Virus record (IMG/VR): IMGVR_UViG_2563366800_000007
DNA: 42,997 nucleotides
Direction: 5' to 3' (one strand)
From: a virus
Taxonomy: Duplodnaviria > Heunggongvirae > Uroviricota > Caudoviricetes
The notes beneath the pieces were generated by a model. The model was not told the DNA's origin. It ran no database searches and worked only from the letters and a program-made list of their open reading frames with translations. Positions within the stretch are counted from its first letter, which is position 1, and every line of letters begins with the position of its first letter. This document shows, one piece after another, positions 2,835 to 23,964 of the stretch. Both the position numbers and the translations under genes were made by a program.

Positions 2835-5800
2835 TTATGCCTGAGTACGCAGCGCTTCAAGGCGGCGCAGGTCGAAGTCGTTCAGTTCGTCGGTGTAGTC
2901 AGCAGTGATTGGCGCTGGCCATTCACCTGTGTCGAATCCGGTTGCGATATTGCGCATCGCTTTGCGGTACTCGAGCATACCCAGCTCCAGTAGTTCAGCG
3001 GATGCCTCGATGATGGCGATCCAGTGGTAGTTCTCGTCTTTGTTGACGAAAATCCAGAAGAACTGATCCAGCGCTGCGGTTTCGCAGTACATAGCCGCGC
3101 TCAGGTGATAATCACGTTCAATAATTTCCCGGTGTAGCCTGGCGCGCAGGCTTTCCTGCTTAACATTCCACATGCTGATGGTTTTCAGGTCTGCACCTAT
3201 ACGCACGCCATCCAGGTCGATCTCAAGGTCAGGGCGCACACGAACTTCCAAGCCCGTCTCCTCGTCAAAACCAAAGTAGCTCACCTCAACGGCTCGGCTA
3301 GGGTGGGTCAGCAGCATGCCGGCGGTCGGGTGTGCCAGAAGCGCTTTTTGAATATTCAGCGCGGTGCTCAGCTGCTGGCGGGTGACCAGCACTTTTCCTT
3401 CCGGGTTATCGCGCCAGGCATCCAGCAGTTCGTCGGCAAATACGGCATCTGGTTTGACTGCCTTCACGGCCTGGATCATGTCTGCTTTGGTACCGGACAC
3501 TTTCAGTGGTGCCGGTTTCTGTGCTTCCTGAGCCACAAGGTCAGGGTTGATGATTGCCAACTGCTCCAGCAGCGCGTCACGGCTGCCGCTGGTTTTAACC
3601 GGCGGCGGCAGGGTGGCGTTGTACTCTTTAATGCATGCCTTCATTGCCGTCGCCGTCTGCTTCTGGTCACCATCAATACGCTGGAAGTCAGCTGGCAGCG
3701 CCATATAGTTCTGTGCCGTTTCTTCCAGGTTAGCGCCAAGCGGAACCTGCGGCGGCAGGGTGGCGTTGTACTCTTCCAGTAACACCTTGATGTCGTCGGC
3801 AGATAGCAGCGCCGGCAGGCTGGCATTGTGCTCATCGATAAAGGCGCGCAGGGTCGCGGCCGTTGTGAATGCGCCTTCAGGGATCACCGGTTCAACGCTG
3901 AATTCTGCGTCCAGTAGTTCAGGCTGCAACGCCAGCGCATGCACCAAGTTGCCCATGTCCAGCACCGCTGAGCGCTCTTTGACGATGGTTTTCTCTACGT
4001 GGCGCGCATTGAAGTACATCAGCGAAACGCGCGCATCTTTCACCTGGGTTGAGCTGATGCCGTTGGCGGCGTGGTAAACCTCGTTTGGCAGCCCTTCATA
4101 GCGGCCTGGCTCGAAATAAGCGGGATAAACAACAGCTGGTTCGTCAGATTGCGCTTCTGGCTCGGTTTGTGCTGCAACTGGTTCGGTTTGGCTTACAGAA
4201 TCGCTATTTTTGGCGACAGAATCCGTATTCTGGTTTACATCGTCCTTCTGGCTGGTATCTGACTCTTCACCAGACTCCAGACTGCTTTCGCCTGGCTGTA
4301 CTTCATCACCAACATTTTTTTCATCACTGACAGTTTCTTCCATCTGCACATTGCTGGTGGTTTCCTCATTAAGTGGTGAACGGTTATCTGTTTGTGTTTG
4401 TTGATCGCCCATCAGGCCATCAATGGAGAATACGCCGTTGCCCATGTTGGCGATTTGTGGCTGTTTAGCAGCTGTTTTCTGCTCTGCAGCGACCTGCTCA
4501 TTAACCTCATTTTCCCAGCTGACGTCCGGCGCATGACCAGCATCAGCCAGCGTTTCTTCTGAGGGGTTTGAGTGGTCATTTTCGGTTAGATTGGCGTTGA
4601 TATATGCCCGCAACCGCCCAGGAAAGTTAACCAATTCTGATGATGTGCCGCGGATGAGTGCAAAGATGGCGGCGCGTGAATAGTCCAGGATGCCAGCGGT
4701 TTTGCGCAGCGCCTCAGACCATTCGCTGAACGGACTTTCTTTCTTGCTGACAATCTCTTTAGCGCGACGGTAGACCCCACCAGGTATGTCGTAGATATTG
4801 AAATCCATTGGCAAGGTGGCCAGCGCAATTTCAACATCCAAAGTGTCCAGTGTGTGGACATAGTCGGTATTACGATCGGTCTTATTTCCACCGCCAGCAT
4901 TGGTTTTGACGTCAGTACGTTGAATCTGCGCAACGCGGTTACCTTTCTGCCATTCCTTGACCAGCAGGCCACGGTCGATGTAATTAGTGTTGAACCACAC
5001 AGTCAGGAACTGGATAACTGTTGCCAGCTCCGGTTTTTTACCGTCGACAGGGAAGACTTTCTTAACAGCATTCACGACTTTATGAATATCGTGCTCAATG
5101 GCTTTTTTGAATGCTTCCACATTCTCAGCAGCCAGCAGCAGGTTCTGGATGTACGTGTCATCAGTGTCCATCTCAAGGCGGACAATCTCGTTTTTCTGCC
5201 CAGCGTCGATGTGATAGAGATATTCACCATCACCGATGAACTGAGCCAGTACGCGCTGACGGAATGGCAGGGTGGCTACGACGATCAGGTTCGGCTGATC
5301 TGGCTGCTGAGATTGTTCTTCGGTACCGACTTCATCACCAACGCTGGTGGTTTCAGTTTTGAGCAGAGGAAACCTGCCACTGCGCCAGTCTTCAACCAGT
5401 TGATTGCGATCACCTGATTCTGCGTTCACCCAGTCAGACATGAAAGCAGCGATCACTTCAGGTCCATGCTCTTCACCCTGTTCGAAGATGTCTTTAATCG
5501 CCTGAATCATTTTCCACTCAGCATTAAGACTGAGTTCGCCAACTTCAGGAACATCATTTTTAACCTGCAGCAAGTTCTGGAGATAGGTATTGCTTTCGTC
5601 CAGTGACATTTCGCTGGCAGCCAGCTGCTGCTCTTTAGTGACGTGAGTCTGGTACTTATCGCTCATCAGATGGAAGGCAAAACGGACTGCTGGAGTGCGG
5701 TTTTCTAACGATACATTCTCGTCAGAAGTCGCTACTTCATCTGTATTTTTTACATCGGCAGGGATAGTGGTGACAACGTCGCCAGCGGCCTTTGGCAGCC

Positions 5801-6170
5801 AGGTGCGCCCGTCGTCCTGCAGTTCGTAACGATCACACCAGGTGAAATCAACTTCACCTTCTTCCGGCAGGTCGTCATATATCGGGAAATCGGTGCGGAT
5901 TGGTTTGGCATAATCTTTACCGCGGCCAGTTTCTTCAATTCCGGCTTCTTCCAGTGCCACATCGAGTTGGAGATTGGCGCGCGCTACACTTTTCGCAGTG
6001 AACCAAATCACGGCATCTTTCTTGCCAGACTTCTGACTGGCTTTTATCAGATGGAAAAATTCCATGTGAGATCCTCTTTTTTGAGTGTTAGAATCCCCGG
6101 GCCAGAGATAGCGCCCATTGGATGTTTTTTGGTTTGGTATAAATTCCGGTGTAACTTTGGTCGGTGGCAC
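2835..6170 (-). CDS. recE: RecE-like exodeoxyribonuclease VIII (long N-terminal region plus C-terminal PD-(D/E)xK nuclease domain)
   Basis: 1111-aa ORF; C-terminal RPDLEIDLDGVRIGADLKT fits a PD-(D/E)xK active site; partner of RecT; internal repeated EYNATLPP motif. Confidence 0.7.
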   Translation of the reverse strand: MPPTKVTPEFIPNQKTSNGRYLWPGDSNTQKRGSHMEFFHLIKASQKSGKKDAVIWFTAKSVARANLQLDVALEEAGIEETGRGKDYAKPIRTDFPIYDDLPEEGEVDFTWCDRYELQDDGRTWLPKAAGDVVTTIPADVKNTDEVATSDENVSLENRTPAVRFAFHLMSDKYQTHVTKEQQLAASEMSLDESNTYLQNLLQVKNDVPEVGELSLNAEWKMIQAIKDIFEQGEEHGPEVIAAFMSDWVNAESGDRNQLVEDWRSGRFPLLKTETTSVGDEVGTEEQSQQPDQPNLIVVATLPFRQRVLAQFIGDGEYLYHIDAGQKNEIVRLEMDTDDTYIQNLLLAAENVEAFKKAIEHDIHKVVNAVKKVFPVDGKKPELATVIQFLTVWFNTNYIDRGLLVKEWQKGNRVAQIQRTDVKTNAGGGNKTDRNTDYVHTLDTLDVEIALATLPMDFNIYDIPGGVYRRAKEIVSKKESPFSEWSEALRKTAGILDYSRAAIFALIRGTSSELVNFPGRLRAYINANLTENDHSNPSEETLADAGHAPDVSWENEVNEQVAAEQKTAAKQPQIANMGNGVFSIDGLMGDQQTQTDNRSPLNEETTSNVQMEETVSDEKNVGDEVQPGESSLESGEESDTSQKDDVNQNTDSVAKNSDSVSQTEPVAAQTEPEAQSDEPAVVYPAYFEPGRYEGLPNEVYHAANGISSTQVKDARVSLMYFNARHVEKTIVKERSAVLDMGNLVHALALQPELLDAEFSVEPVIPEGAFTTAATLRAFIDEHNASLPALLSADDIKVLLEEYNATLPPQVPLGANLEETAQNYMALPADFQRIDGDQKQTATAMKACIKEYNATLPPPVKTSGSRDALLEQLAIINPDLVAQEAQKPAPLKVSGTKADMIQAVKAVKPDAVFADELLDAWRDNPEGKVLVTRQQLSTALNIQKALLAHPTAGMLLTHPSRAVEVSYFGFDEETGLEVRVRPDLEIDLDGVRIGADLKTISMWNVKQESLRARLHREIIERDYHLSAAMYCETAALDQFFWIFVNKDENYHWIAIIEASAELLELGMLEYRKAMRNIATGFDTGEWPAPITADYTDELNDFDLRRLEALRTQA

Positions 6171-6203
6171 CGGACGTGAATCCCGCCTTGCGCGGGGTTT
6201 TCG

Positions 6204-6365
6204 TTATGCTTCGTGGGCCATCTGGTCGAACGAAGCGCAACGTACTGAACAGTAATCACGTTGCTCGCGTTTCAACTGCGTGCCGTGGATAAAGAGCAGT
6301 TCGTTTTTAACTTCCTTCCCTTGCTTGATCGGCTTGCGGCAGTACGCGCATTTTTTCTCCTGCAT
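6204..6365 (-). CDS. Small Cys4 zinc-ribbon protein (YdaE-like by position)
   Basis: 53-aa ORF below the 60-aa track cutoff, translated by hand: MQEKKCAYCRKPIKQGKEVKNELLFIHGTQLKREQRDYCSVRCASFDQMAHEA; two Cys pairs (CxxC ... CxxxC); lies between the KilR-like ORF and recE as in Rac-type prophages. Confidence 0.45.
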   Translation of the reverse strand: MQEKKCAYCRKPIKQGKEVKNELLFIHGTQLKREQRDYCSVRCASFDQMAHEA

Positions 6366-6376
6366 AACTCACTCCG

Positions 6377-6583
6377 TTAATGGCTAAGGCCATGTCCTAA
6401 ACCGTTTAGATAAACCTCAACCAGCAAATCTTTGGTGTAGGTACGTTCGATGCCACGGTGAAGATACAGGCGACCGCGTGCGTTAGCAGATGCGGTCCAG
6501 GTTGAGTCTTTGTGTTTTACAAGCATCCCCGGCTGAACTGCGCCGCGGTTTACTGTCTGTGTACCGTAGTGCTGATGAACCAT
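6377..6583 (-). CDS. KilR-like small protein (assigned by synteny); a longer 116-aa reading to 6727 is possible
   Basis: Internal ATG at 6583 is preceded by GGAGAA about 7 nt upstream and gives a 68-aa product (MVHQHYG...EVYLNGLGHGLSH); function inferred only from position relative to recET in Rac-like prophages. Confidence 0.35.
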   Translation of the reverse strand: MVHQHYGTQTVNRGAVQPGMLVKHKDSTWTASANARGRLYLHRGIERTYTKDLLVEVYLNGLGHGLSH

Positions 6584-11849: not shown

Positions 11850-12090
11850 ATGAACATAACAATCCGTGAGCAGGTGCTGGCAGCCCTGCGCAACAACCCA
11901 GGGTTGAACAACGCCAAACTGGCAGGGCTTCCCGGAGTGGTACATCATCGATCAGGACTATCGGGGGCAGAAGTACGCGAAGGACAAGCAGGTTGCGCGT
12001 TGTGGCAACGCAGTTCCGCCGCCATTCGCCGAGGCACTGGTGAGGGCTAATTTACCGGAGCTTTGTCAGCAGAAAGAGATCGCAGCTTAA
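11850..12090 (+). pseudogene. Remnant of a C5-cytosine DNA methyltransferase (3-prime end only, no in-frame start)
   Basis: One frame encodes ...EWYIIDQDYRGQKYAKDKQVARCGNAVPPPFAEALVRANLPELCQQKEIAA, the C-terminal block of C5-methyltransferases, preceded by a stop; an overlapping 67-aa ORF in another frame has no recognisable similarity. Confidence 0.5.
12031..12090 (+). repeat. Direct repeat copy 1 (methylase 3-prime end), partner at 12619..12678
   Basis: 60-bp segment gaggcactggtgagggctaatttaccggagctttgtcagcagaaagagatcgcagcttaa, about 85% identical to the downstream copy. Confidence 0.6.
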
Positions 12091-14915: not shown

Positions 14916-15049
14916 CATTTGAATCCTGTTTTTCCGATCACCTCCGCGTTCGCTGGCAGCGGCTTCGCTTATACCACTTTCCCGGCTCTGTGCTAACGGA
15001 CTACCGGATACTGAAGAACTACATCAAAACCATAGGCGGTGCAGTATGA
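14912..15049 (+). CDS. YlcG-like 45-aa protein
   Basis: Hand-translated [45 protein letters not shown]; ATGA overlap with the rusA stop and with the next start; same position as ylcG between rusA and Q in DLP12. Confidence 0.5.
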
Positions 15050-15735
15050 ATACTCAATTTCTCGAATACGTGCGCCAGCAGTTGATGGTGGCCACCGCCG
15101 ATTTAAGTGGTGCGACGAAAGGGCAGTTGATGGCGTGGCTTGAAAACGCGCAGTTCGATACGGGAACGTTTAAACGTAAAAAGCCTCGAGTGCTGGATGA
15201 AGTGACCGGGGAAATGATTACGCTGGATAACCCGCCAATACCGGGCAAGCAGTCGCATGCCAAGGGTTCGCATATTCCCCTGGTGCAGCCGGTTGAATAC
15301 TCCAGCGCATCGTGGCGCCGCGCACTGATGTCACTCGAAGAACACCAGAAAGCGTGGCTGCTATGGAACTATAGCGAGAACGTGCGCTGGTGCTATCAGG
15401 TGGAAATCACTCAATGGGCGTGGGCAGAGTTCCGGGAGCAGCTCGGCGCGAAGAAGGTGGCCGGCAAAACGATGGAGCGCCTGAAGAAGCTTGTCTGGCT
15501 CGCGGCTCAGGACGTGAAAGCAGAGCTGGCAGGGCGTGAGATGTACGAATATCAGGCGCTGGCGTCGCTGGTTGGCGTAACGCCAAAAAACTGGTCAGAG
15601 ACCTTTACTGACCGCTGGGTTGAGATGCGCAGCATCTTCCTGCGACTGGATAGCGGGGCTTTATTGCAGGTTACGCGATCACGTTCACAACAAAAGGCGA
15701 CAAATTTAGACTCAAGTCTTGCAAAACTGGATTGA
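15046..15735 (+). CDS. Putative late antiterminator (Q-like), assigned mainly by position
   Basis: 229-aa ORF at the end of the nin operon, followed by a terminator, a strong promoter and a second terminator-like hairpin (the PR-prime/tR-prime layout); sequence family not confirmed. Confidence 0.5.
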   Translation: MNTQFLEYVRQQLMVATADLSGATKGQLMAWLENAQFDTGTFKRKKPRVLDEVTGEMITLDNPPIPGKQSHAKGSHIPLVQPVEYSSASWRRALMSLEEHQKAWLLWNYSENVRWCYQVEITQWAWAEFREQLGAKKVAGKTMERLKKLVWLAAQDVKAELAGREMYEYQALASLVGVTPKNWSETFTDRWVEMRSIFLRLDSGALLQVTRSRSQQKATNLDSSLAKLD

Positions 15736-16306: not shown

Positions 16307-17206
16307 ATGCCAAATTGGATAGACGTGTTGGGCGAGATGGGTACTATTGCTCAACGTACACCAGCGGATGAGGTTCGCCACAAGTACTTACGAGAGTTGT
16401 CGAAGCATACAGGCCGAAACGTAATTTCATATTACTCAGGCTTCCTCCAGAAGGGGGGGCCTGGGTTGCAGCATTTAATACAAATGTCAGATGACGATAA
16501 AAATGGTCTTATGTCAGCCATTAACGGCTTAGACACGTCATTAGGGCTGGATATCTTGCTTCATACCCCAGGGGGAGATATTGCAGCATTGGAATCTATT
16601 GGTCATTATCTTCGTTCAAAATTTGGGACCAATATCCGGGCAATTGTTCCTATGATCTCAATGAGTTGTGGGACCATGTTGGCTTGCTGTGCCGAACAGA
16701 TTGTATTGGGCAAACAGTCAAATTTGGGGCCAATTGATCCGCAGCTTGGTGGTTTATCATCTCATGCGATCATAGAAGAGTATGAGCGAGCTAAGAAAGA
16801 GATTTCTGAAAATGCTGCAGCGATCCAATGGTGGCAATTTACTCTTCAAAAGCTAAACCCGACTCTCATTGGTGAATGTGAAAAGGCTATTGTTTGGGCT
16901 AATGAAATAGTACAAAAATGGCTGTGTACTGGTATGTTTGCAGGTCATGCTAACGCTCAAGATAAGGCTAAGCGAATTTGTGATGAGCTAAACAATCATC
17001 ATACAACCTATGCGCATGCTAGACATATTCATCTGGATAAAGCGCAAAGCATTGGTTTGAACATTATGGAGCTGGAGAGCGACCAAACTCTGCAGGATCT
17101 TGTGCTGACTATACATCATTGCTACATGCATTCATTTGGTACGAGTCCTGCTGCGAAAATTATTGAAAATCATAATGGCAGCACGATGATGTGGAATATT
17201 CGCTAA
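16307..17206 (+). CDS. ClpP/crotonase-fold serine peptidase (SDH / S49-like family)
   Basis: 299 aa; LLHTPGGDIAALES resembles the ClpP/SppA oxyanion-hole motif and IVPMISMSCGTMLACCAEQIVLG the nucleophile-serine block; AT-rich; starts 12 bp after the small ORF and ends at a strong terminator. Confidence 0.7.
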   Translation: MPNWIDVLGEMGTIAQRTPADEVRHKYLRELSKHTGRNVISYYSGFLQKGGPGLQHLIQMSDDDKNGLMSAINGLDTSLGLDILLHTPGGDIAALESIGHYLRSKFGTNIRAIVPMISMSCGTMLACCAEQIVLGKQSNLGPIDPQLGGLSSHAIIEEYERAKKEISENAAAIQWWQFTLQKLNPTLIGECEKAIVWANEIVQKWLCTGMFAGHANAQDKAKRICDELNNHHTTYAHARHIHLDKAQSIGLNIMELESDQTLQDLVLTIHHCYMHSFGTSPAAKIIENHNGSTMMWNIR

Positions 17207-17228
17207 ACGATATATCCTCGAATCACAT

Positions 17229-17255
17229 AAGGCCACCTTCGGGTGGCCTTTTTTA
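17229..17255 (+). terminator. Strong rho-independent terminator
   Basis: Perfect 7-bp GC-rich stem ggccacc / ggtggcc with a ttcg loop, followed by TTTTTT. Confidence 0.75.
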
Positions 17256-17300: not shown

Positions 17301-17696
17301 ATGTCCGATCCTGTTTCTGGCACTACGGTCGCGGCTGGTGGCCTGATGGGAGCCAGCGTATTTGGTCTTGCAACCGGTATTGATTATGGCGTGGTATTTG
17401 GCGCATTCGCTGGTGCAGTATTTTATGTAGCGACAGCGGCAAATATCACACGAGTACGATTGATTGCTTACTTCATGACGTCATTCATTGTTGGCGTTCT
17501 TGCCGCTGGACTGGTGGGTTCAAAGCTGTCACAGGCTACCGGGTATAGTGACAGACCATTAGACGCACTTGGTGCTGTTGTAGTGGCGGCGATGACAATC
17601 AAAGTGCTCACATTTTTCAACAGTCAGGATTTGGGAAGCCTGTTCAGTATTCTTTCGCGATTCCGTGGAGGAGGGGCCAGCAATGGTAACAAGTGA
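17301..17696 (+). CDS. Holin-like membrane protein
   Basis: 131 aa with several hydrophobic helices (GLMGASVFGLATGIDYGVVFGAFAGAVFYVA..., FIVGVLAAGLVG...); first gene of the lysis cassette with an AGAGGGGG ribosome-binding site. Confidence 0.6.
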   Translation: MSDPVSGTTVAAGGLMGASVFGLATGIDYGVVFGAFAGAVFYVATAANITRVRLIAYFMTSFIVGVLAAGLVGSKLSQATGYSDRPLDALGAVVVAAMTIKVLTFFNSQDLGSLFSILSRFRGGGASNGNK

Positions 17697-17964
17697 TCCG
17701 TCAGCGATGGTGAATGCAGGTATTTGTGCGGTCATCGTCCTTGTCCTGATGTTCTACCAGCGTGAAGGGGCAAGACATCGCCCCGCTATATCATTGCTGG
17801 CGTACTTCGTTGTGCTGGTTTATGCCAGCGTTCCATTCCGATATCTGTTCGGCCTCTACCAGGAGTCACACTGGATGGTGGTCATCGTAAACCTTCTTAT
17901 TTGCGCTGCCGTGTTATGGGCTCGTGGGAATGTGGCGCGTCTCGTTGATACGCTGAGGCATTAA
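17683..17964 (+). CDS. Second holin-like or antiholin membrane protein
   Basis: 93-aa product from the ATG at 17683 (GGAGGAGG upstream) with two or three hydrophobic helices; overlaps the preceding stop. Track ORF begins at 17665. Confidence 0.5.
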   Translation: MVTSDPSAMVNAGICAVIVLVLMFYQREGARHRPAISLLAYFVVLVYASVPFRYLFGLYQESHWMVVIVNLLICAAVLWARGNVARLVDTLRH

Positions 17965-18581
17965 TGAACCAATCACAATTTCAACAGGCGGCTGGTGTAA
18001 GCGCCGGGTTAGCTACGCGCTGGTTTCCGCACATTGACGCGGCAATGAAAGAGTTCGGCATTGTTAAGCCTGAAGACCAGGCAATGTTTATTGCTCAGTC
18101 AGGACATGAATCAGCGGGATTCTCTGCGCTGGTGGAGAGCTTCAACTACACCCCAGCCGCTCTGCTGACCACATTTGGACGCCGCATTACGAACTATCAG
18201 GCATATATGCTTGGGCGTGACAAAGAAAAAGGGCACGTAGCCAATCAGCCAGCCATTGCAAATCTGGTGTACAGCAATCGCCTCGGTAACAAAGCATCAG
18301 GCGATGGGTGGAAATATCGTGGCCGTGGGCTGATTCAGATTACCGGTCTTGATAATTACCGCCGCTGCGGAACGGGATTAAAACTGGATTTAGTCAGTAA
18401 TCCTGAGTTGCTGGAAAAGGATATCAACGCGGCACGTTCAGCTGCATGGTTCTACGCCACCAGCGGATGCCTGAGCTATTCCGGCGATCTGGTTCGCATC
18501 ACCCAGATCATCAATGGTGGACAGAACGGCATTAACGACCGTCGTGCACGCTACGCCAAAGCAAAAGCCGCACTGGTATGA
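17964..18581 (+). CDS. Endolysin, glycoside hydrolase family 19 (chitinase-like)
   Basis: FIAQSGHESAGF ... YRGRGLIQITGLDNY blocks are typical of GH19 phage endolysins; ATGA overlap with the upstream gene. Confidence 0.8.
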   Translation: MNQSQFQQAAGVSAGLATRWFPHIDAAMKEFGIVKPEDQAMFIAQSGHESAGFSALVESFNYTPAALLTTFGRRITNYQAYMLGRDKEKGHVANQPAIANLVYSNRLGNKASGDGWKYRGRGLIQITGLDNYRRCGTGLKLDLVSNPELLEKDINAARSAAWFYATSGCLSYSGDLVRITQIINGGQNGINDRRARYAKAKAALV

Positions 18582-18588
18582 GGTCGCT

Positions 18589-18864
18589 ATGGGACTTGAA
18601 ATGATTATCGGCCTGGCTGTTGCTGTGCTGGCTGCAATTGCAGGTGCTTTTGGTCTGGGTAAATCGCGCGGTACTAACATCGCTGAGACAAAAGCGGACC
18701 AGCAACGCACTGAAGAACGTGCAACAGCTACTGAAGCTGTTGCTGAACGCCGGGTAGAAACAACGAAAGAGGCCAGCAATGTACAGCAGAGTGTTAACCA
18801 TATGCTTGGCGACGATGTTGATCGTGAGCTGCGCAACAACTGGACCCGCCCCGGTAGTCGTTGA
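18589..18864 (+). CDS. i-spanin (Rz-like)
   Basis: N-terminal transmembrane helix (MGLEMIIGLAVAVLAAIAGAFGL) followed by a charged periplasmic region; directly after the endolysin. Start 18589 (track ORF begins at 18514). Confidence 0.65.
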   Translation: MGLEMIIGLAVAVLAAIAGAFGLGKSRGTNIAETKADQQRTEERATATEAVAERRVETTKEASNVQQSVNHMLGDDVDRELRNNWTRPGSR

Positions 18865-19030
18865 TACCGCCTGTGATTGGGTAAAGCCCATCTATCTTAC
18901 TGACCACGATATTGCCGTTATGGATAAGCAGACGAAGCGCGACATCCTAGTGCATAACAAAGCATGGAAGGTGAACTGTAATCCCAAAAAGGTAAAGACG
19001 AGCACTCTAAAATTTGTGGACAAGCCATGA
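18779..19030 (+). CDS. o-spanin (Rz1-like) lipoprotein, overlapping the i-spanin gene in another frame
   Basis: Signal peptide with a lipobox-like LIVSC followed by a Pro-rich stretch; the gene starts inside the i-spanin gene, the classic nested arrangement. Confidence 0.65.
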   Translation: MYSRVLTICLATMLIVSCATTGPAPVVVDTACDWVKPIYLTDHDIAVMDKQTKRDILVHNKAWKVNCNPKKVKTSTLKFVDKP

Positions 19031-19092
19031 AGTACCCGTTATCCTTTCTATAGGATTCCAAAGGAATACCATAGGAAACCAAAGGTAACATT

Positions 19093-19344
19093 ATGGCAAA
19101 AACATATTTCCCCATCGAAGACTCTGTAGAGTTAGTGACAGCATCTAAACCACACCCAAGTAACACGCATTACAAAGTTTCTCGTGGAACTGAAATCTGG
19201 GATGGTGAAAATGTTGAGGTAATCAAAGTTCAGATGGTTTACAACGGCGAAGTGGCCGGAAGAAGAAGCCCTTCATATCCCGTTGGGACTGATGATTATC
19301 AACGTGTCCATTTAGCTATAGAAAAAATCATCAGGTCAAGATAA
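19093..19344 (+). CDS. Hypothetical 83-aa protein (monocistronic moron)
   Basis: ORF followed 8 bp later by a rho-independent terminator; no recognisable motifs. Confidence 0.4.
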   Translation: MAKTYFPIEDSVELVTASKPHPSNTHYKVSRGTEIWDGENVEVIKVQMVYNGEVAGRRSPSYPVGTDDYQRVHLAIEKIIRSR

Positions 19345-19351
19345 AAGCAAA

Positions 19352-19374
19352 AGGTCGCTTAGGCGGCCTTTTTT
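19352..19374 (+). terminator. Rho-independent terminator
   Basis: Stem aggtcgc / gcggcct (one G-U pair) with a ttag loop, followed by TTTTT. Confidence 0.6.
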
Positions 19375-19582
19375 CATCGATAATACATTCACTGGGTTAT
19401 ATCCAATCCCGTGGTTGAGAGGCATGCTGTATTGCTACTCGACTAACTGCATTACAGAAAGCATTCACTGAGTGCCTGCGATAATGCAAATTGACGGACT
19501 CGTCAGAAATCCTTTACAAAACATGATGTTGAATTAAATTGTTGCGTGGGTTAGCTTGAGGTTAGTTCACACAGGAGGTCAT

Positions 19583-19825
19583 ATGTCACAATCAGCGCTT
19601 GCTACTGAATTAGAACTCACTGACGATGAGTTGGATTCCATACCTCTATCACCTGAAGACCTTGAGGAGAATACAGGGCATTCAGGCGATATGGTATATG
19701 AGTACTATTTCTATGTTCCCGATACTACCCCTGAAGATATTCTTAGCAAGAAAGGATGGGAAATAGGTGAGTGTGTTTACTTATCTATTAATGTTTTTGA
19801 TGACCCGGATTCGGAGCAAGAATAG
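19583..19825 (+). CDS. Strongly acidic 80-aa protein (monocistronic moron)
   Basis: AGGAGG Shine-Dalgarno 5 nt upstream of the ATG; about 22 Asp/Glu against 2 Lys by hand count; bracketed by terminators. Track ORF begins at 19556. Confidence 0.45.
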   Translation: MSQSALATELELTDDELDSIPLSPEDLEENTGHSGDMVYEYYFYVPDTTPEDILSKKGWEIGECVYLSINVFDDPDSEQE

Positions 19826-19842
19826 AACGATAAGCATAATGC

Positions 19843-19864
19843 ACCGCCTCCGGGCGGTTTTTTT
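19843..19864 (+). terminator. Rho-independent terminator
   Basis: Stem accgcc / ggcggt with a tccg loop, followed by TTTTTTT. Confidence 0.7.
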
Positions 19865-19886
19865 ATGTCAGTACACTGGAGCGTTT

Positions 19887-20525
19887 ATGGCAACACTCAA
19901 AGACCTTTCTCAGCAATTAAAGAAGGTACAAAAGCAGGTGCCATATGCTACAGCACTAGCTATGACAAAAGTTGTTCGTCAAATAGAAACGGCACAGAAA
20001 ACAGCGTTCGAACGACATCTGGAGAGCCCGACACCGTTTACCGTTAAATCAGTTGGTTCGGTGGCGGCAAGGAAGAACAACCTGACTGCAAAGGTTTTTG
20101 TCCGCGATACCGCGGCTGGTTATCTGGAACCATTCGAGTTAGGTGGAGAGCATAAGCTCAATAGCCAAGCGCTATTGAACCCCAAGAACGTCAAGCTAAA
20201 CAAATACGGCAACATGCCGCGTAATAAGCTCTCACAGCTTAAAGCAAAGGAAAATGTATTCGTAGGTGAGGTTGATGGCGTTAACGCTGTCTGGCAGCGT
20301 AAGAAGCCGATGAAAGCTAAGAAGCGACGGGCCAAACGTTCCGCTAACGGGACGCGAAGACCGAAACGCAAACAGCGTTCTCCAAAGCTTTTGATCCGGT
20401 TTGGTGATGCGCTACCTGTGACTCCAGTGCTGGGGTATATGGATAGGGCCCGTACCATGGCGAACGCACTGCTACCGTCTGCTTTAAATCAGGCGATAGC
20501 AGAAGCCATCAGGACGGCAAAATAA
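19887..20525 (+). CDS. Hypothetical 212-aa protein with a Lys/Arg-rich segment
   Basis: Internal ATG at 19887 with GGAG upstream; contains KKPMKAKKRRAKRSANGTRRPKRKQRSPK, suggesting nucleic-acid binding; no family recognised. Track ORF begins at 19767. Confidence 0.45.
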   Translation: MATLKDLSQQLKKVQKQVPYATALAMTKVVRQIETAQKTAFERHLESPTPFTVKSVGSVAARKNNLTAKVFVRDTAAGYLEPFELGGEHKLNSQALLNPKNVKLNKYGNMPRNKLSQLKAKENVFVGEVDGVNAVWQRKKPMKAKKRRAKRSANGTRRPKRKQRSPKLLIRFGDALPVTPVLGYMDRARTMANALLPSALNQAIAEAIRTAK

Positions 20526-20535
20526 AAGCAGTAAC

Positions 20536-21039
20536 TTATAAGTTAATTTCGCAAGCTTTTATGAAGCTGTTTACTGCAGTTGTCGATCCAGAAACATTGG
20601 CTGACATGGAATGCTGGTTTCCGCCATCCTTTGTTTGCACACCAACTAACACTTTGGATTTCGCCCCCTGAAGCTGCTTAAGCACTGTTTTTAGTTGGTC
20701 CGCGTCATCCGATTGAATCTGGAGGCTCTGAACATTACGTCTTGAAAGGGTAGCATCGAGCTTCACTGCGGTATTCCCGTCGACCTTCATTATCAGGTCC
20801 ATTGGTACCTCTGATAGTGATTCGGTGCTTTTATCCATTTCAACGTATGCCGCCGATAGCTTTTCTTTAGTGCAGTCAAACACAATGGCGCCATTGTCGG
20901 ATGAAACCTCGCCAAGCATCATTGCTTTCTTACCACCAGAGAAAAGGTCATCTTCAGTATTAGTTACCCACTGGGCATGAGCAATTGGTGATGCCAGCAC
21001 TGCGGCTACGAAAGTTATTTTGATTATATTGTTACCCAT
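20536..21039 (-). CDS. Secreted or periplasmic protein of unknown function
   Basis: ATG at 21039 preceded by AAGGAGAA; N-terminal signal peptide MGNNIIKITFVAAVLASPIAHA then QW; two Cys in the mature part; transcribed opposite to the late genes, next to cos. Confidence 0.5.
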   Translation of the reverse strand: MGNNIIKITFVAAVLASPIAHAQWVTNTEDDLFSGGKKAMMLGEVSSDNGAIVFDCTKEKLSAAYVEMDKSTESLSEVPMDLIMKVDGNTAVKLDATLSRRNVQSLQIQSDDADQLKTVLKQLQGAKSKVLVGVQTKDGGNQHSMSANVSGSTTAVNSFIKACEINL

Positions 21040-21130: not shown

Positions 21131-21160
21131 GGTACGGGCATTGCGCGCCGCGGTGTTTTC
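21131..21160. other. cosN-like GC-rich segment (candidate cohesive-end site)
   Basis: tacgggcattgcgcgccgcggtgttttcc resembles the lambda cos region (tacggggcggcgacctcgcgggttttcgc) in layout; about 170 bp upstream of the terminase small-subunit gene. Confidence 0.4.
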
Positions 21161-21183
21161 CTAGCTACAACTTTCAGATTTGT

Positions 21184-21330
21184 GTCCCATGTCCCACCTC
21201 TGGCGATCATTACGGACACCTCGCCAGCTCTGGCTATTCCAGTTTATTCCAGTGGGACATTCTGGTGGGACATGGCAAAAATGTCCCAGGCGAATGTCCC
21301 ACCCCAGAAAATGTCCCAGGTGATGTCCCA
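21184..21330. repeat. Eight copies of GTCCCA / TGGGAC (candidate terminase small-subunit binding sites, cosB-like)
   Basis: Hexamers at about 21184, 21191, 21283, 21296, 21313, 21325 (forward) and 21253, 21266 (reverse), mostly as ATGTCCCA with 12 to 17-bp spacing, ending at the terS start codon. Confidence 0.5.
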
Positions 21331-21899
21331 TGACCACGATGAACCAGAGTCAGTACGCACAACATTCAGGTGTGGATCGCAAAACAATTGGTCGGTGGAT
21401 TAAAGCCGGGCGCTTCATTGTGATGGACGGAGACCTGATTGACGTAGAGGCCAGCGATGCGGCATTGAAGAAAAACCGCGATGGCAAAGACCCGCGCGCC
21501 TCGAACGCGAAGAAAAAGAAAACTCCCGTCGTTAGCGATAACGATGATGACGGTGATGAAATCAATAAAACTGTCCGCCAGATAATGCTCACTGAAGGGG
21601 CAGATCTTTCGAGAGAGGAAGCGGGACGTATCCGCGAGAATTACATGGCCCTGCAGGCAAAGCTGCAGTATGAAAAAGACAGCGGCCAGCTTATTGAGCT
21701 GACAGCAGCCGAGGAGGTTTTATTCAACGCCTTTCGCCAACAGCGTGATGCCTGGCTTAACTGGCCGTCCAGGGTGGCGCCGCTAATGGCTGCTGATCTG
21801 GATGTACCGGCGGACAGGATGACAGAGGTGCTGATTGAACATGTCCACAAACACATCTCAGTCCTCGGAGAGCCAGAGTTTAACCCGGCAGAAGATTGA
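21330..21899 (+). CDS. Terminase small subunit (lambda Nu1-like)
   Basis: N-terminal HTH (QYAQHSGVDRKTIGRWIKAG) as in Nu1; immediately upstream of and overlapping the large-subunit gene; preceded by the repeat array. Confidence 0.75.
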   Translation: MTTMNQSQYAQHSGVDRKTIGRWIKAGRFIVMDGDLIDVEASDAALKKNRDGKDPRASNAKKKKTPVVSDNDDDGDEINKTVRQIMLTEGADLSREEAGRIRENYMALQAKLQYEKDSGQLIELTAAEEVLFNAFRQQRDAWLNWPSRVAPLMAADLDVPADRMTEVLIEHVHKHISVLGEPEFNPAED

Positions 21900-23964
21900 G
21901 CGTCTTGAATTAAGCGTCCGCAAAGGCTGGACACCCCCGCCGCGTATCAGTGTGCCGCAGTGGGCAGATGACTATCGTAAGCTGGCAAAAGAGGCTGGGA
22001 GCACTTCGGGAAACTGGGAAACATCGACGGTAGAAATTGCCCGCGGACCGATGCTTGCCGCGACGGAGTCCGGGGTTCATATCATCACTGTAATGTGCTG
22101 TACCCAGTTGATGAAGACAGCACTGCTGGAAAACCTTTTTGGCTATTTTGCCCACCTCGATCCTTGTCCGATACTGCTGCTGCAGCCGAAAGAAGAAGCC
22201 GCTGAACAGTTTTCGAAAGAGCGTATTAGCCCGCTGGTAAGGGTGACGCCGGTACTGCGTAAAATCATCGGTGATTCGAAACAGAAAAGCTCGAAAGAAA
22301 CCATTCTTTACAAGGCGTTCACTGGCGGATTTCTGGCGCTGGCGGGTGCTGGTAGCCCTGATAACCTTGCGCGTCGTCCGATTCGTGTCCTGCTGGCGGA
22401 TGAAGTGGACAAGTACCCGATAACCCGCGAAGGCGATCCAATTGCGCTGGCCGAAGAGCGTACAGCGACATTTGGCCTGACCTGGCTGTCTGTACGCGCC
22501 TGTTCGCCGACGGTGGAGGATGAGAGCCGCATTGCTGACAGCTACGCCGACTCCGATCAGCGCCGGGCATCTGTGGTTTGCCCGCACTGTGGCCACCGCC
22601 AGTTCCCCGACTTTTTCAAACACGTTCAGTGGCCGAAAGAGGGAGATAAACACCTGACTAAATCGGCGATGCTCTATTGCGAATGCTGTGGTAGTGGCTG
22701 GTCCGAAGGACAGCGCCTCAGAGCTCTGCAAACTATTCGATGGCATCAGACGCGCCCATTTGAGTGCTGCGGGGAGCGGCACTCACCGCTGATGGATTAT
22801 GACCTTGCCTGGCGGGCGGCAGACGAGGGCAGCGTTGAAAAGGTCTGGCAATGGTCAGAGTCGGAACGGCATGCGGTCTATCGCGCAATCTGCCCCTCCT
22901 GTGGAAAGGAGGCAGTCGATAACCACCACGCGGGGTACCAGGCATCCAAGCTTTTCAGCCCCTGGCAAAAAGATAAGCCGTCGGATATTGCGAAAAAATA
23001 TATCGATGCGAAGGGCGATCCGGATAAGGAACAGGCGTGGTGGAATACCCAGATGGGGCTTCCGCACCGACCTAATCATGGGAAACAGCTCCCTGTTGAT
23101 GTTCTGCTGGCGCGCCGGGAAATATTTCCGGCCGTCGTTCCGGACGGGGTGGCATTGTTAACAGCTGGAGTTGATACCCAGGACGATCGCTTCGAAATTA
23201 CGATCACCGGCTGGGGGAGAGATGAAGAATCGTGGTCGGTCGCGCATGACGTTATTTATGGTGACCTTGAGACGGAAGAACCCTGGAAGCGACTGGATGC
23301 ATACCTGAAACAGATCTGGCGACGTGGTGACGGGCGCGGCCTGAATATCATGGCAACGTGCATGGACTCCGGTGGCCACCATACGCAGAAGGTATACGAA
23401 TTCGCCAAAGAGCGTCTTGGCCGTCGTGTCTGGGCAATTAAGGGGGAGTCTGCACAGGGAGGTAAACGCAATCCTGTCTGGCCGACCAAACGACCATCAT
23501 CGAAAAGCAAAGCCAGTTTCCGCCCTGTCATTCTGGGGGTTAACTCAGCGAAAGACGTGATACGCGGTCGCCTGCATCTTGAGCCACCCAAACCTGGCGC
23601 CGCCGCTGCGGGTTATATGCATTTTCCTGACGATCGCGATCTCGGGTACTTCAATCAGCTGCTGGCGGAGCGACTGGTTTACAAAGTCATTTCCGGGCAG
23701 CGGTACAGTATCTGGGAAGCAATACCAGGACGAGCTAACGAAGCGCTTGACTGCCTCGTTTACAGCTATGCCGCGCTGTGCGGTCTCAAACATATGGGGT
23801 TAAAACTCAACGTCCGGGCCGCCAACCTCGAAGCCGATCCGGATAAGTTCCTGCCAGCGCCAGTTGGACAGGAAGAAAAAATCAATTACGAGCTGCCGGG
23901 TGCGGTTATTGAAGAACCAGCGCCGGTCAAACGTAAGCGAATATCGCAACTCCTGCCGAAATAA
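21835..23964 (+). CDS. Terminase large subunit (lambda gpA family)
   Basis: 709 aa; Cys-rich region CPHCGHRQF...CECCGSGW, ATPase and nuclease blocks and a C-terminal ANEALDCLVYSYAAL motif parallel lambda gpA; start overlaps the 3-prime end of terS. Confidence 0.9.
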   Translation: MNMSTNTSQSSESQSLTRQKIERLELSVRKGWTPPPRISVPQWADDYRKLAKEAGSTSGNWETSTVEIARGPMLAATESGVHIITVMCCTQLMKTALLENLFGYFAHLDPCPILLLQPKEEAAEQFSKERISPLVRVTPVLRKIIGDSKQKSSKETILYKAFTGGFLALAGAGSPDNLARRPIRVLLADEVDKYPITREGDPIALAEERTATFGLTWLSVRACSPTVEDESRIADSYADSDQRRASVVCPHCGHRQFPDFFKHVQWPKEGDKHLTKSAMLYCECCGSGWSEGQRLRALQTIRWHQTRPFECCGERHSPLMDYDLAWRAADEGSVEKVWQWSESERHAVYRAICPSCGKEAVDNHHAGYQASKLFSPWQKDKPSDIAKKYIDAKGDPDKEQAWWNTQMGLPHRPNHGKQLPVDVLLARREIFPAVVPDGVALLTAGVDTQDDRFEITITGWGRDEESWSVAHDVIYGDLETEEPWKRLDAYLKQIWRRGDGRGLNIMATCMDSGGHHTQKVYEFAKERLGRRVWAIKGESAQGGKRNPVWPTKRPSSKSKASFRPVILGVNSAKDVIRGRLHLEPPKPGAAAAGYMHFPDDRDLGYFNQLLAERLVYKVISGQRYSIWEAIPGRANEALDCLVYSYAALCGLKHMGLKLNVRAANLEADPDKFLPAPVGQEEKINYELPGAVIEEPAPVKRKRISQLLPK

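Follow-up and report, generated by a model that had tools for sequence, protein, structure and literature searches.

Two candidate moron cassettes at the lysis/packaging junction of an Escherichia coli prophage, one encoding an acidic domain also joined to defence-type proteins

Two small genes, orfA and orfB, lie between the lysis and packaging genes of an Escherichia coli prophage represented by the IMG/VR record IMGVR_UViG_2563366800_000007, the whole 42,997-nucleotide (nt) stretch of which was analysed and is referred to here as the window. Taken as a whole the evidence appears best explained by two independently acquired, self-contained accessory-gene cassettes (morons) stacked at a recombination-prone lysis/packaging junction, an explanation to which we would give about an even chance of being correct. 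The feature class is already known, being that of morons in the lambdoid late region, and the products come from uncharacterised families. Temperate phages use moron slots to house cargo for defence and counter-defence.

Two accessory genes and their boundaries

The early region of this E. coli prophage is of the Rac type, its terminase is lambda-like (GpA) and its tail is contractile, and it encodes a Q antiterminator. Prophages 100% identical to the region are present in seven complete E. coli genomes, and the gene order was taken from the RefSeq annotation of one of these together with profile searches. A first-pass annotation of the window had placed both genes between lysis and packaging genes and this was borne out, with the pair lying 3' of the holin, endolysin and Rz/Rz1 genes and 5' of terS and terL. 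It needed correcting in one respect, in that two further genes at 19887-20525 (+) and 20536-21039 (-) separate orfB from terS. The two genes and their terminators are:

19093-19344, plus strand: orfA, ATG start, 83 amino acids, isoelectric point (pI) 6.8, 41% guanine plus cytosine (GC), three long beta-strands and a C-terminal helix predicted, invariant RRSPS loop
19349-19374, plus strand: orfA intrinsic terminator, 10-bp stem (19349-19358/19363-19372) with a GCUUAG-type tetraloop region and a U run, inverted repeat I4
19583-19825, plus strand: orfB, ATG start, 80 amino acids, acidic, 41% GC, PHROG 31861
19843-19865, plus strand: orfB intrinsic terminator, ACCGCC-UCCG-GGCGGU stem (19843-19858) followed by U7, from a consensus scan

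The open reading frames (ORFs) are present as first described, and both are annotated as coding sequences by RefSeq in the identical E. coli prophages (WP_016245908.1 and WP_016245909.1). The N-termini of homologues agree with the start codons, all beginning MAKT(Y/F)FP for orfA and MSQSAL for orfB, and each start is preceded by a Shine-Dalgarno sequence, AAAGGT 5 nt before orfA and AGGAGG at 19573-19578 before orfB. In pairwise comparisons of orfB the synonymous sites are saturated, with proportions of synonymous differences (pS) of 0.67-0.86 and of nonsynonymous differences (pN) of 0.09-0.21, and orfA has 38 homologues at 50-87% identity, Firmicutes among them. Judged by the comparison of homologues both ORFs are genuine genes under purifying selection.

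The orfA terminator folds at -14.5 kcal/mol (z = -3.56) with equally good folds in 0 of 200 shuffles, and that of orfB at -16.5 kcal/mol (z = -2.88), matched by 4 of 200. It had been proposed that a terminator follows each gene within 10 to 20 bp; there is indeed one after both, and the spacing is right for orfB (17 nt past the stop codon) and wrong for orfA, where the terminator is closer at 4 nt. Terminator-like sites as a class are not enriched in the 5-kb stretch (8 against 4.7 +/- 2.4 expected). A hairpin with a U run stands in the same place in every orfB homologue locus examined, with at least three unrelated stem sequences, and most orfA homologues are also followed by one, in genomes of 27-55% GC. 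This comparison, in which the position is kept across homologue loci while the stems differ, makes the stronger case for the terminators.

In order to find breakpoints the segment 18500-20600 was compared by blastn with all fetched loci. An IMG/VR prophage (locus L151) is 99.9% identical over 18500-19489 and diverges right past a hairpin described below; it has orfA and lacks orfB, in place of which stands a reverse-oriented 204-amino-acid gene. The related prophage KFu022 and a Kluyvera contig match from 19449 and 19428 respectively to 20600 and have orfB without orfA, with a lipoprotein gene at the orfA position in KFu022. At loci L064 and L087 homology resumes only at 19886-19887 and there is no orfB, and in L064 the junction hairpin directly precedes the homologue of the gene at 19887, lying about 20 nt 5' of it. 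The breakpoints among near-identical prophages fall at 19449, 19489 and 19886, and from them it follows that the orfB cassette is 19490-19886 and that orfA was acquired separately. Comparison with these relatives shows the insertion of this cassette between the junction hairpin and the next late gene. Both genes have a GC content well below the 51% of the window and lie in a trough of 41-43% over 18850-20050, flanked by lysis genes of about 52% and packaging genes of 51-61%.

For both units we found insertion between genes that are adjacent in relatives, a terminator of their own and a differing base composition. A promoter of their own is a prediction only, resting for orfB on a -35/-10 pair kept in four of five loci and for orfA on a 9/12 site here together with sites at 12 of 15 homologue loci. 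The description of the genes as independent units embedded in the late region is supported by their presence and absence in relatives, the GC trough, the terminators and their own upstream signals, the promoters being predicted. Cassette 1 (about 19017-19374) would consist of a weak promoter, four phased CYAWAGG repeats, orfA and its terminator, and cassette 2 (19490-19886) of a palindrome, a sigma-70-type promoter, orfB and its terminator.

An alternative would be that both are ordinary late-operon genes serving the phage's own cycle, for example as packaging or assembly helpers, with incidental terminators and promoter-like sites. They do share the orientation of the late operon, and neither terminator-like nor promoter-like sites are enriched as classes in the region. 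RNA polymerase modified by a lambda-type Q protein ignores intrinsic terminators, and since the prophage has a Q antiterminator late transcription should therefore read through both terminators, by which the two genes would be co-transcribed, as is established for lambda-type Q. Each gene is however dispensable in near-identical prophages, homologues are found on plasmids and in unrelated phages, where their positions are unrelated too, the composition does not match that of the flanks and the terminators have kept their position and not their sequence, so that we regard this alternative as highly improbable.

The proposed orfB cassette was looked at further by aligning the upstream regions of five orfB loci from different genera. 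The order is junction hairpin, palindrome, -35, 17-nt spacer, -10, AGGAGG and ATG, and the window has the following elements:

19491-19506, no strand assigned: palindrome TTGACGGACTCGTCAG / TTGACGGACTCGTCA (TTGACG-N4-CGTCAA type), putative regulator site centred about 70 bp 5' of the predicted start
19529-19557, plus strand: orfB promoter candidate from the alignment, -35 TTGAAT (19529-19534), 17-nt spacer, -10 TAGCTT (19552-19557)

Four of the five loci have a -35 of TTGACT or TTGACA with a -10 at 17 nt, and a consensus scan returned an overlapping alternative promoter at 19513-19540 (TTTACA-16-TAAATT). The palindrome is kept in KFu022, Ewingella, L007 (TGACGACGTCGTCA) and Erwinia L178 (TTGACGATATCGTCAA) and has no other good copy within the window. 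Promoter and palindrome together are kept across Escherichia, Ewingella, Erwinia and metagenomic phages, and these non-coding blocks are argued to be functional because they are conserved despite the saturated synonymous sites in orfB. OrfB would then be expressed from its own promoter, independently of the late operon. The position of the palindrome is typical of activator sites and it may be the site of a regulator; its identification as an FNR box was dropped, the spacing being 2 bp too long.

The left boundary of the orfB cassette is formed by a conserved hairpin, and two features 5' of it appear to be remnants:

19449-19487, plus strand: conserved junction hairpin, 39 nt, GCATTACAG-AAAGCA-TTCACTGAG-TGCCTG-CGATAATGC
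19379-19397, plus strand: probable decayed second hairpin copy, ..ATAATACATTCACTGGGT, from the alignment with L043
19422-19448, plus strand: relic of the 3' end of a 65-amino-acid gene, from alignment and from blastn matches starting at 19422-19429

The hairpin reads GCATTACAGAAAGCATTCACTGAGTGCCTGCGATAATGC in the window and GCATTACAGCAGGCATTCACTGAGTGCCTGTGATAATGC in its conserved 39-nt form, which is also found in L025 (4001-4050), L026, L027 and L028-L147. The consensus form is present in 143 of 5,426 complete E. coli genomes, mostly without orfB (e.g. the Nissle 1917 prophage, EC_J_9 and 118UI), and at least 120 IMG/VR contigs have the hairpin. Its place in the E. coli prophages examined is between lysis and packaging genes. 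It starts 0-2 nt past the stop codon of many unrelated genes, and the next gene, which varies (terS, HNH endonuclease, morons), comes within 20-70 nt, with a sharp loss of homology on both sides. The consensus folds into about 16-18 bp with two small bulges (-22.1 kcal/mol), and the window copy has two stem mismatches (-11.3 kcal/mol). Among 42 distinct versions one stem position is occupied by G-C (28), C-G (3), T-A, A-T and G-T (5); the search pattern fixed most positions, and covariation is visible at few only. No Rfam family was found in 18900-20000, the hairpin included, and the sequence was not found in the literature searched.

As candidates for its role we consider an RNase III-type site, at which the late transcript would be processed or stabilised, and a recombination joint, either of which would explain the build-up of cargo at the hairpin. 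The element, which hundreds of enterobacterial prophages have, could explain cargo exchange here or the processing of late transcripts. Two other identities were discarded. A cohesive-end site (cos) was set aside with the hairpin lying 1.8 kb from terS here and being common to phages with GpA-type and with P27/HNH-type terminases, and the resemblance to an extended -10 promoter (TGnGATAAT) is due to the palindrome, with a convergent gene and terminator following at once in Nissle and L151.

The orfA terminator is homologous to that of L043, L095 and L098, and together with the next 20 or so nt it aligns over 57 columns with the L043 terminator and intact hairpin and is homologous to the corresponding stretch of L095 and L098; the 12-nt core match of 19379-19397 taken alone is marginal, being reached by 10 of 500 shuffles. 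The 65-amino-acid gene precedes the hairpin in Nissle 1917, 118UI and other prophages. Together the probable decayed hairpin copy and the gene relic suggest that cassettes may have been acquired serially at the hairpin.

The acidic OrfB domain and its possible roles

The second product had been described as very acidic, and the hand count proved exact, with 10 Asp and 12 Glu (22 in all) against 2 Lys and no Arg. OrfB has a net charge of -20 and a pI of about 4.05, Asp and Glu making up 27.5% of its residues. Its sole database family is PHROG 31861 (function not known; E = 1.2e-25, residues 4-79 on profile positions 5-80 of 83). There was no Pfam match at E <= 1, Ocr and ArdA families included, no match in NCBIfam, PADLOC or a PDB sequence search, and no Pfam match to the Ocr or ArdA families among 45 members of the OrfB family. 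A tblastn search against 50,697 phage genomes was also without a match, to which the low-complexity filter may contribute, and neither the accession numbers of the two proteins nor the PHROG identifier were found in the literature searched.

Close homologues form just 8 clusters. Among 1.84 billion protein representatives a profile search returned 60 matches, 22 of them at E <= 1e-10, and the stand-alone matches of about 55-100 amino acids are all but one acidic, with net charges of -6 to -21. The conserved core reads NTGSSGEM-x-Y-x-YYF-x-VP...GW-x-G. In a scan of species-representative genomes the domain was seen in Gammaproteobacteria only (Enterobacterales, Vibrionales and Alteromonadales). 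The structural model is of medium confidence, with a predicted local distance difference test score (pLDDT) of 76, and has two short helices followed by a beta-beta-alpha-beta unit; it matched no PDB chain and its best BFVD Foldseek hit was at E = 0.8, in libraries presumed to hold the solved mimics. At the level of these comparisons OrfB is shown to be the stand-alone form of a conserved domain that is acidic, about 70 amino acids long and under purifying selection.

All close homologues with enough flanking DNA (Ewingella, two metagenomic phages, Erwinia and Superficieibacter) have a lysis cassette on one side and terminase genes on the other, a placement that spans at least five prophage types with differing kinds of lysis and terminase genes. 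In Aeromonas an OrfB-domain gene closes a P2-like prophage. A subfamily of 126-137 amino acids with an N-terminal four-cysteine zinc ribbon is carried by nine conjugative and three mobilizable plasmids, and in MOBH plasmids such as pVPS91 the domain gene is part of a same-strand array of small genes beside topoisomerase III (TopB) and a TraI_2 relaxase. On a 5-kb ColKP3/MOBP plasmid an OrfB-domain gene is the sole cargo.

The domain was also found within larger proteins. In Alteromonas sp. a30 an OrfB-like domain forms the last 75 or so residues of a 682-amino-acid HerA (49% identity over residues 5-65, E = 2e-15). This protein is recognised as HerA by PADLOC (E = 9.4e-196 over residues 5-602) and by Pfam DUF87, and with a SIR2 gene immediately upstream (PADLOC E = 1.6e-111) it makes up a canonical SIR2-HerA system. 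The operon occupies 3113-6219 of locus L179 and a 95-amino-acid ORF follows directly at 6223-6510. In four clusters of 261-276-amino-acid proteins the OrfB domain is N-terminal and the C-terminal region has an RHDIVHRNG (Rx4H) motif together with sub-threshold RiboL-PSP-HEPN matches; one of these HEPN-like fusions is encoded in a variable island of the chromosome, where MazE-like, NUDIX/NrtR, NADAR and ADP-ribosylglycohydrolase genes are also found. Other fusions have a helix-turn-helix-type N-terminus, judged by eye, or a weak sub-threshold Glyoxalase_8 match. The predicted fusion proteins show the domain within the same chain as defence-type proteins of at least two unrelated kinds.

The 204-amino-acid gene that holds the orfB slot in L151 (6423-7037, minus strand) and in L025 (4076-4690, minus strand; E. 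coli Nissle 1917 is among the carriers) has an RNDLAH (Rx4H-like) motif and no Pfam match. As a homologue of the fused HEPN-like domain it was rejected, hhalign giving a probability of 0.2%.

This context of defence-enzyme fusions and plasmid carriage points to a role in a defence/counter-defence conflict rather than to DNA mimicry specifically. Tentatively, and at somewhat less than an even chance, we propose that OrfB is a protein decoy or inhibitor acting against nucleic-acid-handling defence enzymes. It would bind a basic nucleic-acid-handling surface or a regulatory interface of such host enzymes and so block them. Of the two fusion partners, HerA is an ATPase that handles DNA, and RNase activity is typical of HEPN proteins.

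Acidity of this degree raises the question of whether OrfB is specifically a DNA mimic of the Ocr/ArdA kind, the carboxylates of which would imitate the phosphates of B-DNA and fill the DNA-binding groove of type I restriction-modification (and BREX-type) enzymes. The composition and charge given above are what such a protein would have, acidity is family-wide while individual acidic positions vary, and carriage by conjugative or mobilizable plasmids and phages is shared with ArdA and Ocr. There is no Pfam match to any family, anti-restriction ones included, and no structural match to a PDB chain or in BFVD; known mimics are however structurally diverse, with no single fold in common, and act broadly (bioRxiv 10.1101/2025.06.06.658234), so that a missing fold match does not exclude mimicry. 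The best-conserved residues are on the other hand aromatic or Gly/Pro (Y-x-Y-Y-F-x-V-P, W59, G62) and not acidic, the gene is in the late region and not at the first-entering end of the genome, and HerA and a HEPN-like domain as fusion partners suggest a broader or different target. On balance we consider mimicry of this kind unlikely, though reasonable as a sub-hypothesis of the broader anti-defence reading.

A further possibility, which we think no more than modestly probable and on the whole doubtful, is that OrfB serves the lysogen as a moron in defence or superinfection exclusion, either as a free sensor or adaptor domain of the type found on HerA and HEPN-like proteins or as a decoy that traps a protein of an incoming phage. 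The predicted promoter and the terminator of its own are consistent with expression from a repressed prophage, the slot in sister prophages holds other moron-type cargo (the reverse 204-amino-acid RNDLAH gene and a lipoprotein gene), and the domain is covalently part of defence proteins. Stand-alone OrfB has however no effector domain, no conserved neighbouring partner gene and no PADLOC match, and its carriage as the sole cargo of a 5-kb mobilizable plasmid and in small-gene arrays at the relaxase side fits establishment or anti-defence better.

The decoy or inhibitor reading can be extended, at what we would call a low probability, to one in which the OrfB-type domain is a portable inhibitor module. 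It would act in cis as an autoinhibitory or sensing plug in HerA and HEPN-like enzymes and in trans as a decoy for phages and plasmids, and would form a new anti-defence family derived from or donated to defence systems and kept in a hairpin-defined slot. A cassette that is compact, runs from promoter to terminator and encodes an acidic domain of an uncharacterised family could be screened for anti-defence activity at little cost, and SIR2-HerA and HEPN-type systems offer a concrete first target class, as the domain is also built into such enzymes and is plasmid-borne. Among phage proteins acting against SIR2-HerA the literature searched held only ORF58 of phage PhiDruSM1, which is Gam-like and unrelated to OrfB.

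OrfA and its upstream repeats

OrfA had no match in Pfam, PHROG, NCBIfam, PADLOC or a PDB sequence search, and its RRSPSYP motif was not found in the literature searched. Its invariant residues are those of the RRSPS loop (R57, R58, S59, S61) together with H21, Y27, E34, W36, K45, Q47, M48, Y50 and D68, a conservation that is unusually high for a small accessory gene. It ranges over Enterobacteria, Halobacillus, Salinicoccus, plasmids and phages of Bacillus and Priestia, and abundant elements of gut metagenomes. The structural model is confident (pLDDT 92), with three 12-residue strands and a C-terminal helix, and has no recognisable ribbon-helix-helix (RHH), helix-turn-helix or AbrB fold and no Pfam domain.

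The context of orfA homologues differs in every genome and there is no recurring partner gene. Neighbours judged by eye from ORF translations include opposite-strand portal/terminase, lysis, terS, ssb/RusA-type and thymidylate-synthase-type genes, and precomputed Pfam hits add Bro-N/ANT genes. In Halobacillus (L013, 6001-6753) the homologue adjoins GmrSD_C and Mrr_cat genes by precomputed Pfam hits, and in L159 (6001-9283) a large methylase gene and a specificity-like gene stand beside it, as seen by eye. These restriction-type neighbours may be there by chance or may point to a connection with defence.

What does travel with the gene is a DNA motif, which in the window takes the form of an array next to a candidate promoter:

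19017-19045, plus strand: orfA promoter candidate, weak sigma-70-like, TGGACA-17-TATCCT (9/12), overlapping the 3' end of Rz1
19048-19085, plus strand: putative operator array of four phased repeats CTATAGG / CCAAAGG / CCATAGG / CCAAAGG (starts 19048, 19058, 19069 and 19079; 10-11 bp spacing), direct repeat D1

The promoter candidate has the same relative position as that in L153, a Buttiauxella-like homologue, and the array is the sole cluster of at least three such sites within 60 bp in the 43 kb (0.03 clusters in shuffles). The 110 nt 5' of each of 15 independent orfA homologues were then read. They contain CTATAG(G), CTAAAGG(TA) and CCAAAGG in arrays spaced at 10-11 bp, in which one copy is often inverted and overlies the -35 and direct ones occupy the spacer and the positions just past the -10, and the Gram-positive copies of orfA have near-consensus promoters with the repeats embedded in them. 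Promoter-like sites occur within 130 nt upstream at 12 of the 15 loci against 0.18 expected, several of them near consensus (e.g. TTGACA-17-TATAAT). The pattern C[CT][AT][AT]AGG occurs 33 times in the 1,650 nt upstream, which is a 31-fold enrichment over the remainder of these loci (0.07 per 110 nt), and in an unbiased count of 6-mers CTATAG ranks first (49-fold, 10 of 15 loci).

Because the motif follows one small gene across phyla without any other co-inherited gene, the binder of the repeats is taken to be OrfA itself, which most likely would be a small sequence-specific DNA-binding autoregulator of a new family. It would repress its own promoter via the phased repeats. The unit is a ready pair of a new cross-phylum small protein family and its apparent cognate DNA motif.

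The repeats might on the other hand be binding sites of a host factor, or might function within the leader of the mRNA, for example as CsrA-type GGA sites, with OrfA being a ligand sponge or an anti-defence protein inhibitor and not a DNA binder. All four repeats of the window lie 3' of the candidate -10 and so in leader RNA, one of them overlapping the Shine-Dalgarno sequence, the many invariant polar and aromatic residues would suit a ligand pocket, and the restriction-type neighbours in Halobacillus (GmrSD_C, Mrr_cat) and L159 (the methylase/specificity pair seen by eye) would suit anti-defence. Most of the Gram-positive repeats are however in the promoter spacer, with inverted copies over the -35, and are thus untranscribed. 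One host factor common to Bacilli, Clostridia-type gut phages and Enterobacteria that has its motif only at orfA is unlikely, and no other gene co-travels with orfA. CsrA sites as such were dropped, many copies being AGGT in place of the GGA that CsrA requires and many lying upstream of the -10. We rate this family of explanations as quite unlikely, less so than ordinary late-operon function and more so than the rivals considered for OrfB.

Overall weighing, neighbouring genes and known systems

Several points weigh against the account given here of the two cassettes and their products. The units should be independent only outside Q-driven late transcription, that is in the prophage state or before Q acts, and their promoters are predicted. 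The orfA promoter of the window is weak (9/12) and no better than chance for the region, 3 of the 15 orfA homologue loci have no promoter match and 2 of the 15 no strict motif match. The roles proposed for both proteins rest on no homologue with known function. For OrfB the structural model (pLDDT 76) was built on only 8 sequences, the HerA fusion is a single instance, and the HEPN assignment is at 20-24 bits, below the Pfam threshold of 28.4, in fusion proteins that PADLOC does not recognise. Fusion to a defence enzyme would suit a sensor or regulatory role in defence as well as an inhibitor. Three leads that can be tested come out of the study, namely the OrfB-type domains carried by SIR2-HerA and HEPN-like proteins, the pairing of OrfA with the operator-like repeats inherited along with it, and the hairpin conserved at the junction.

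The other genes and signals noted in the window are:

early region: integrase and recET-type early genes, from RefSeq annotation and profile searches
15046-15735: Q antiterminator gene, from the RefSeq annotation of the identical prophage
16307-17206: SDH-family Clp-fold serine protease gene, between the Q gene and the holins
17229-17250: very strong terminator after the protease gene (-18.3 kcal/mol, z = -4.8)
17301-17964: two holins
17964-18581: GH19 endolysin
18514-18864 / 18779-19030: Rz/Rz1
19887-20525, plus strand: 212-amino-acid gene, PHROG 1924 ('minor tail protein')
20536-21039, minus strand: 167-amino-acid gene, PHROG 19473, no known function
21330-21899: terS
21835-23964: terL, GpA-type (lambda-like), with head and contractile-tail genes beyond

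In the related KFu022 prophage the integrase adjoins the host kch gene. The protease gene and its terminator (16307-17250) form one more accessory insertion, here into the leader of the late operon. The 212-amino-acid product has a very basic C-terminal third (KKPMKAKKRRAKRSANGTRRPKRKQRSPK), and a position upstream of terS is an odd site for a tail gene. The reverse 167-amino-acid gene, which lies in a stretch of lower GC and has an N-terminal signal peptide by eye, is probably a third moron in the same slot. Just 5' of terS, at about 21160-21330, are GGGACAT/ATGTCCC-type repeats, noticed only via repeated peptide strings in overlapping ORFs, and these may be terminase-binding (cosB-type) repeats. 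In the early region RefSeq annotates an unusually long tRNA-Ile of 92 nt at about 11913-12004 on the minus strand (L001 13014-13105 in the identical prophage).

Set against known systems, OrfB has in common with SIR2-HerA that the HerA of Alteromonas sp. a30 carries an OrfB-like C-terminal domain; it has however neither an ATPase nor a SIR2 part and is not a member of the system, and one such fusion was found. Ocr (T7 gp0.3) and ArdA are like OrfB in being small and very acidic and in their carriage by phages and conjugative or mobilizable plasmids. OrfB differs from them in having no sequence, Pfam or fold similarity, an aromatic conserved core, a position away from the leading genome end and a domain that is also fused to defence enzymes, and we know of no defence-enzyme fusions of Ocr or ArdA. 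Barstar and the colicin immunity proteins inhibit a nuclease by plugging the face with which it binds nucleic acid. Like OrfB they are small and acidic, with about 80-90 amino acids, and a comparable action would explain a cis domain on a HEPN-like RNase and action in trans when free; OrfB has however no homology to them and no adjacent toxin partner, the analogy being functional only.

The omega protein of pSM19035, ParG and CopG are among the small plasmid and phage autoregulators with binding sites that form arrays of short repeats within the promoters of their own genes. OrfA resembles them in its size of about 80 amino acids and in having several direct and inverted repeats of 7-9 bp with helical phasing over its own promoter; it differs in a predicted fold that is not RHH, in having no partner genes and in its DNA binding being putative. 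RNase III processing hairpins are found between the cistrons of T7 transcripts and at lambda sib. The junction hairpin is likewise imperfect, of about 16-18 bp with small bulges, and placed directly after stop codons between modules of a long phage transcript, whereas it has no Rfam family and could equally be a recombination joint at the DNA level.

The closest parallel for the cassettes as such is with the morons of lambdoid phages, among them those of HK97 and HK022 and the bor and lom genes of lambda, the definition of which is said to be that of Juhala, Hendrix and colleagues. As in those, each cassette is a single gene with its own terminator and a promoter of its own, here predicted, that lies in the late region between genes adjacent in relatives and deviates in composition. 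The present case differs in that the product families have no assigned function and that two cassettes are stacked at one hairpin-marked junction.

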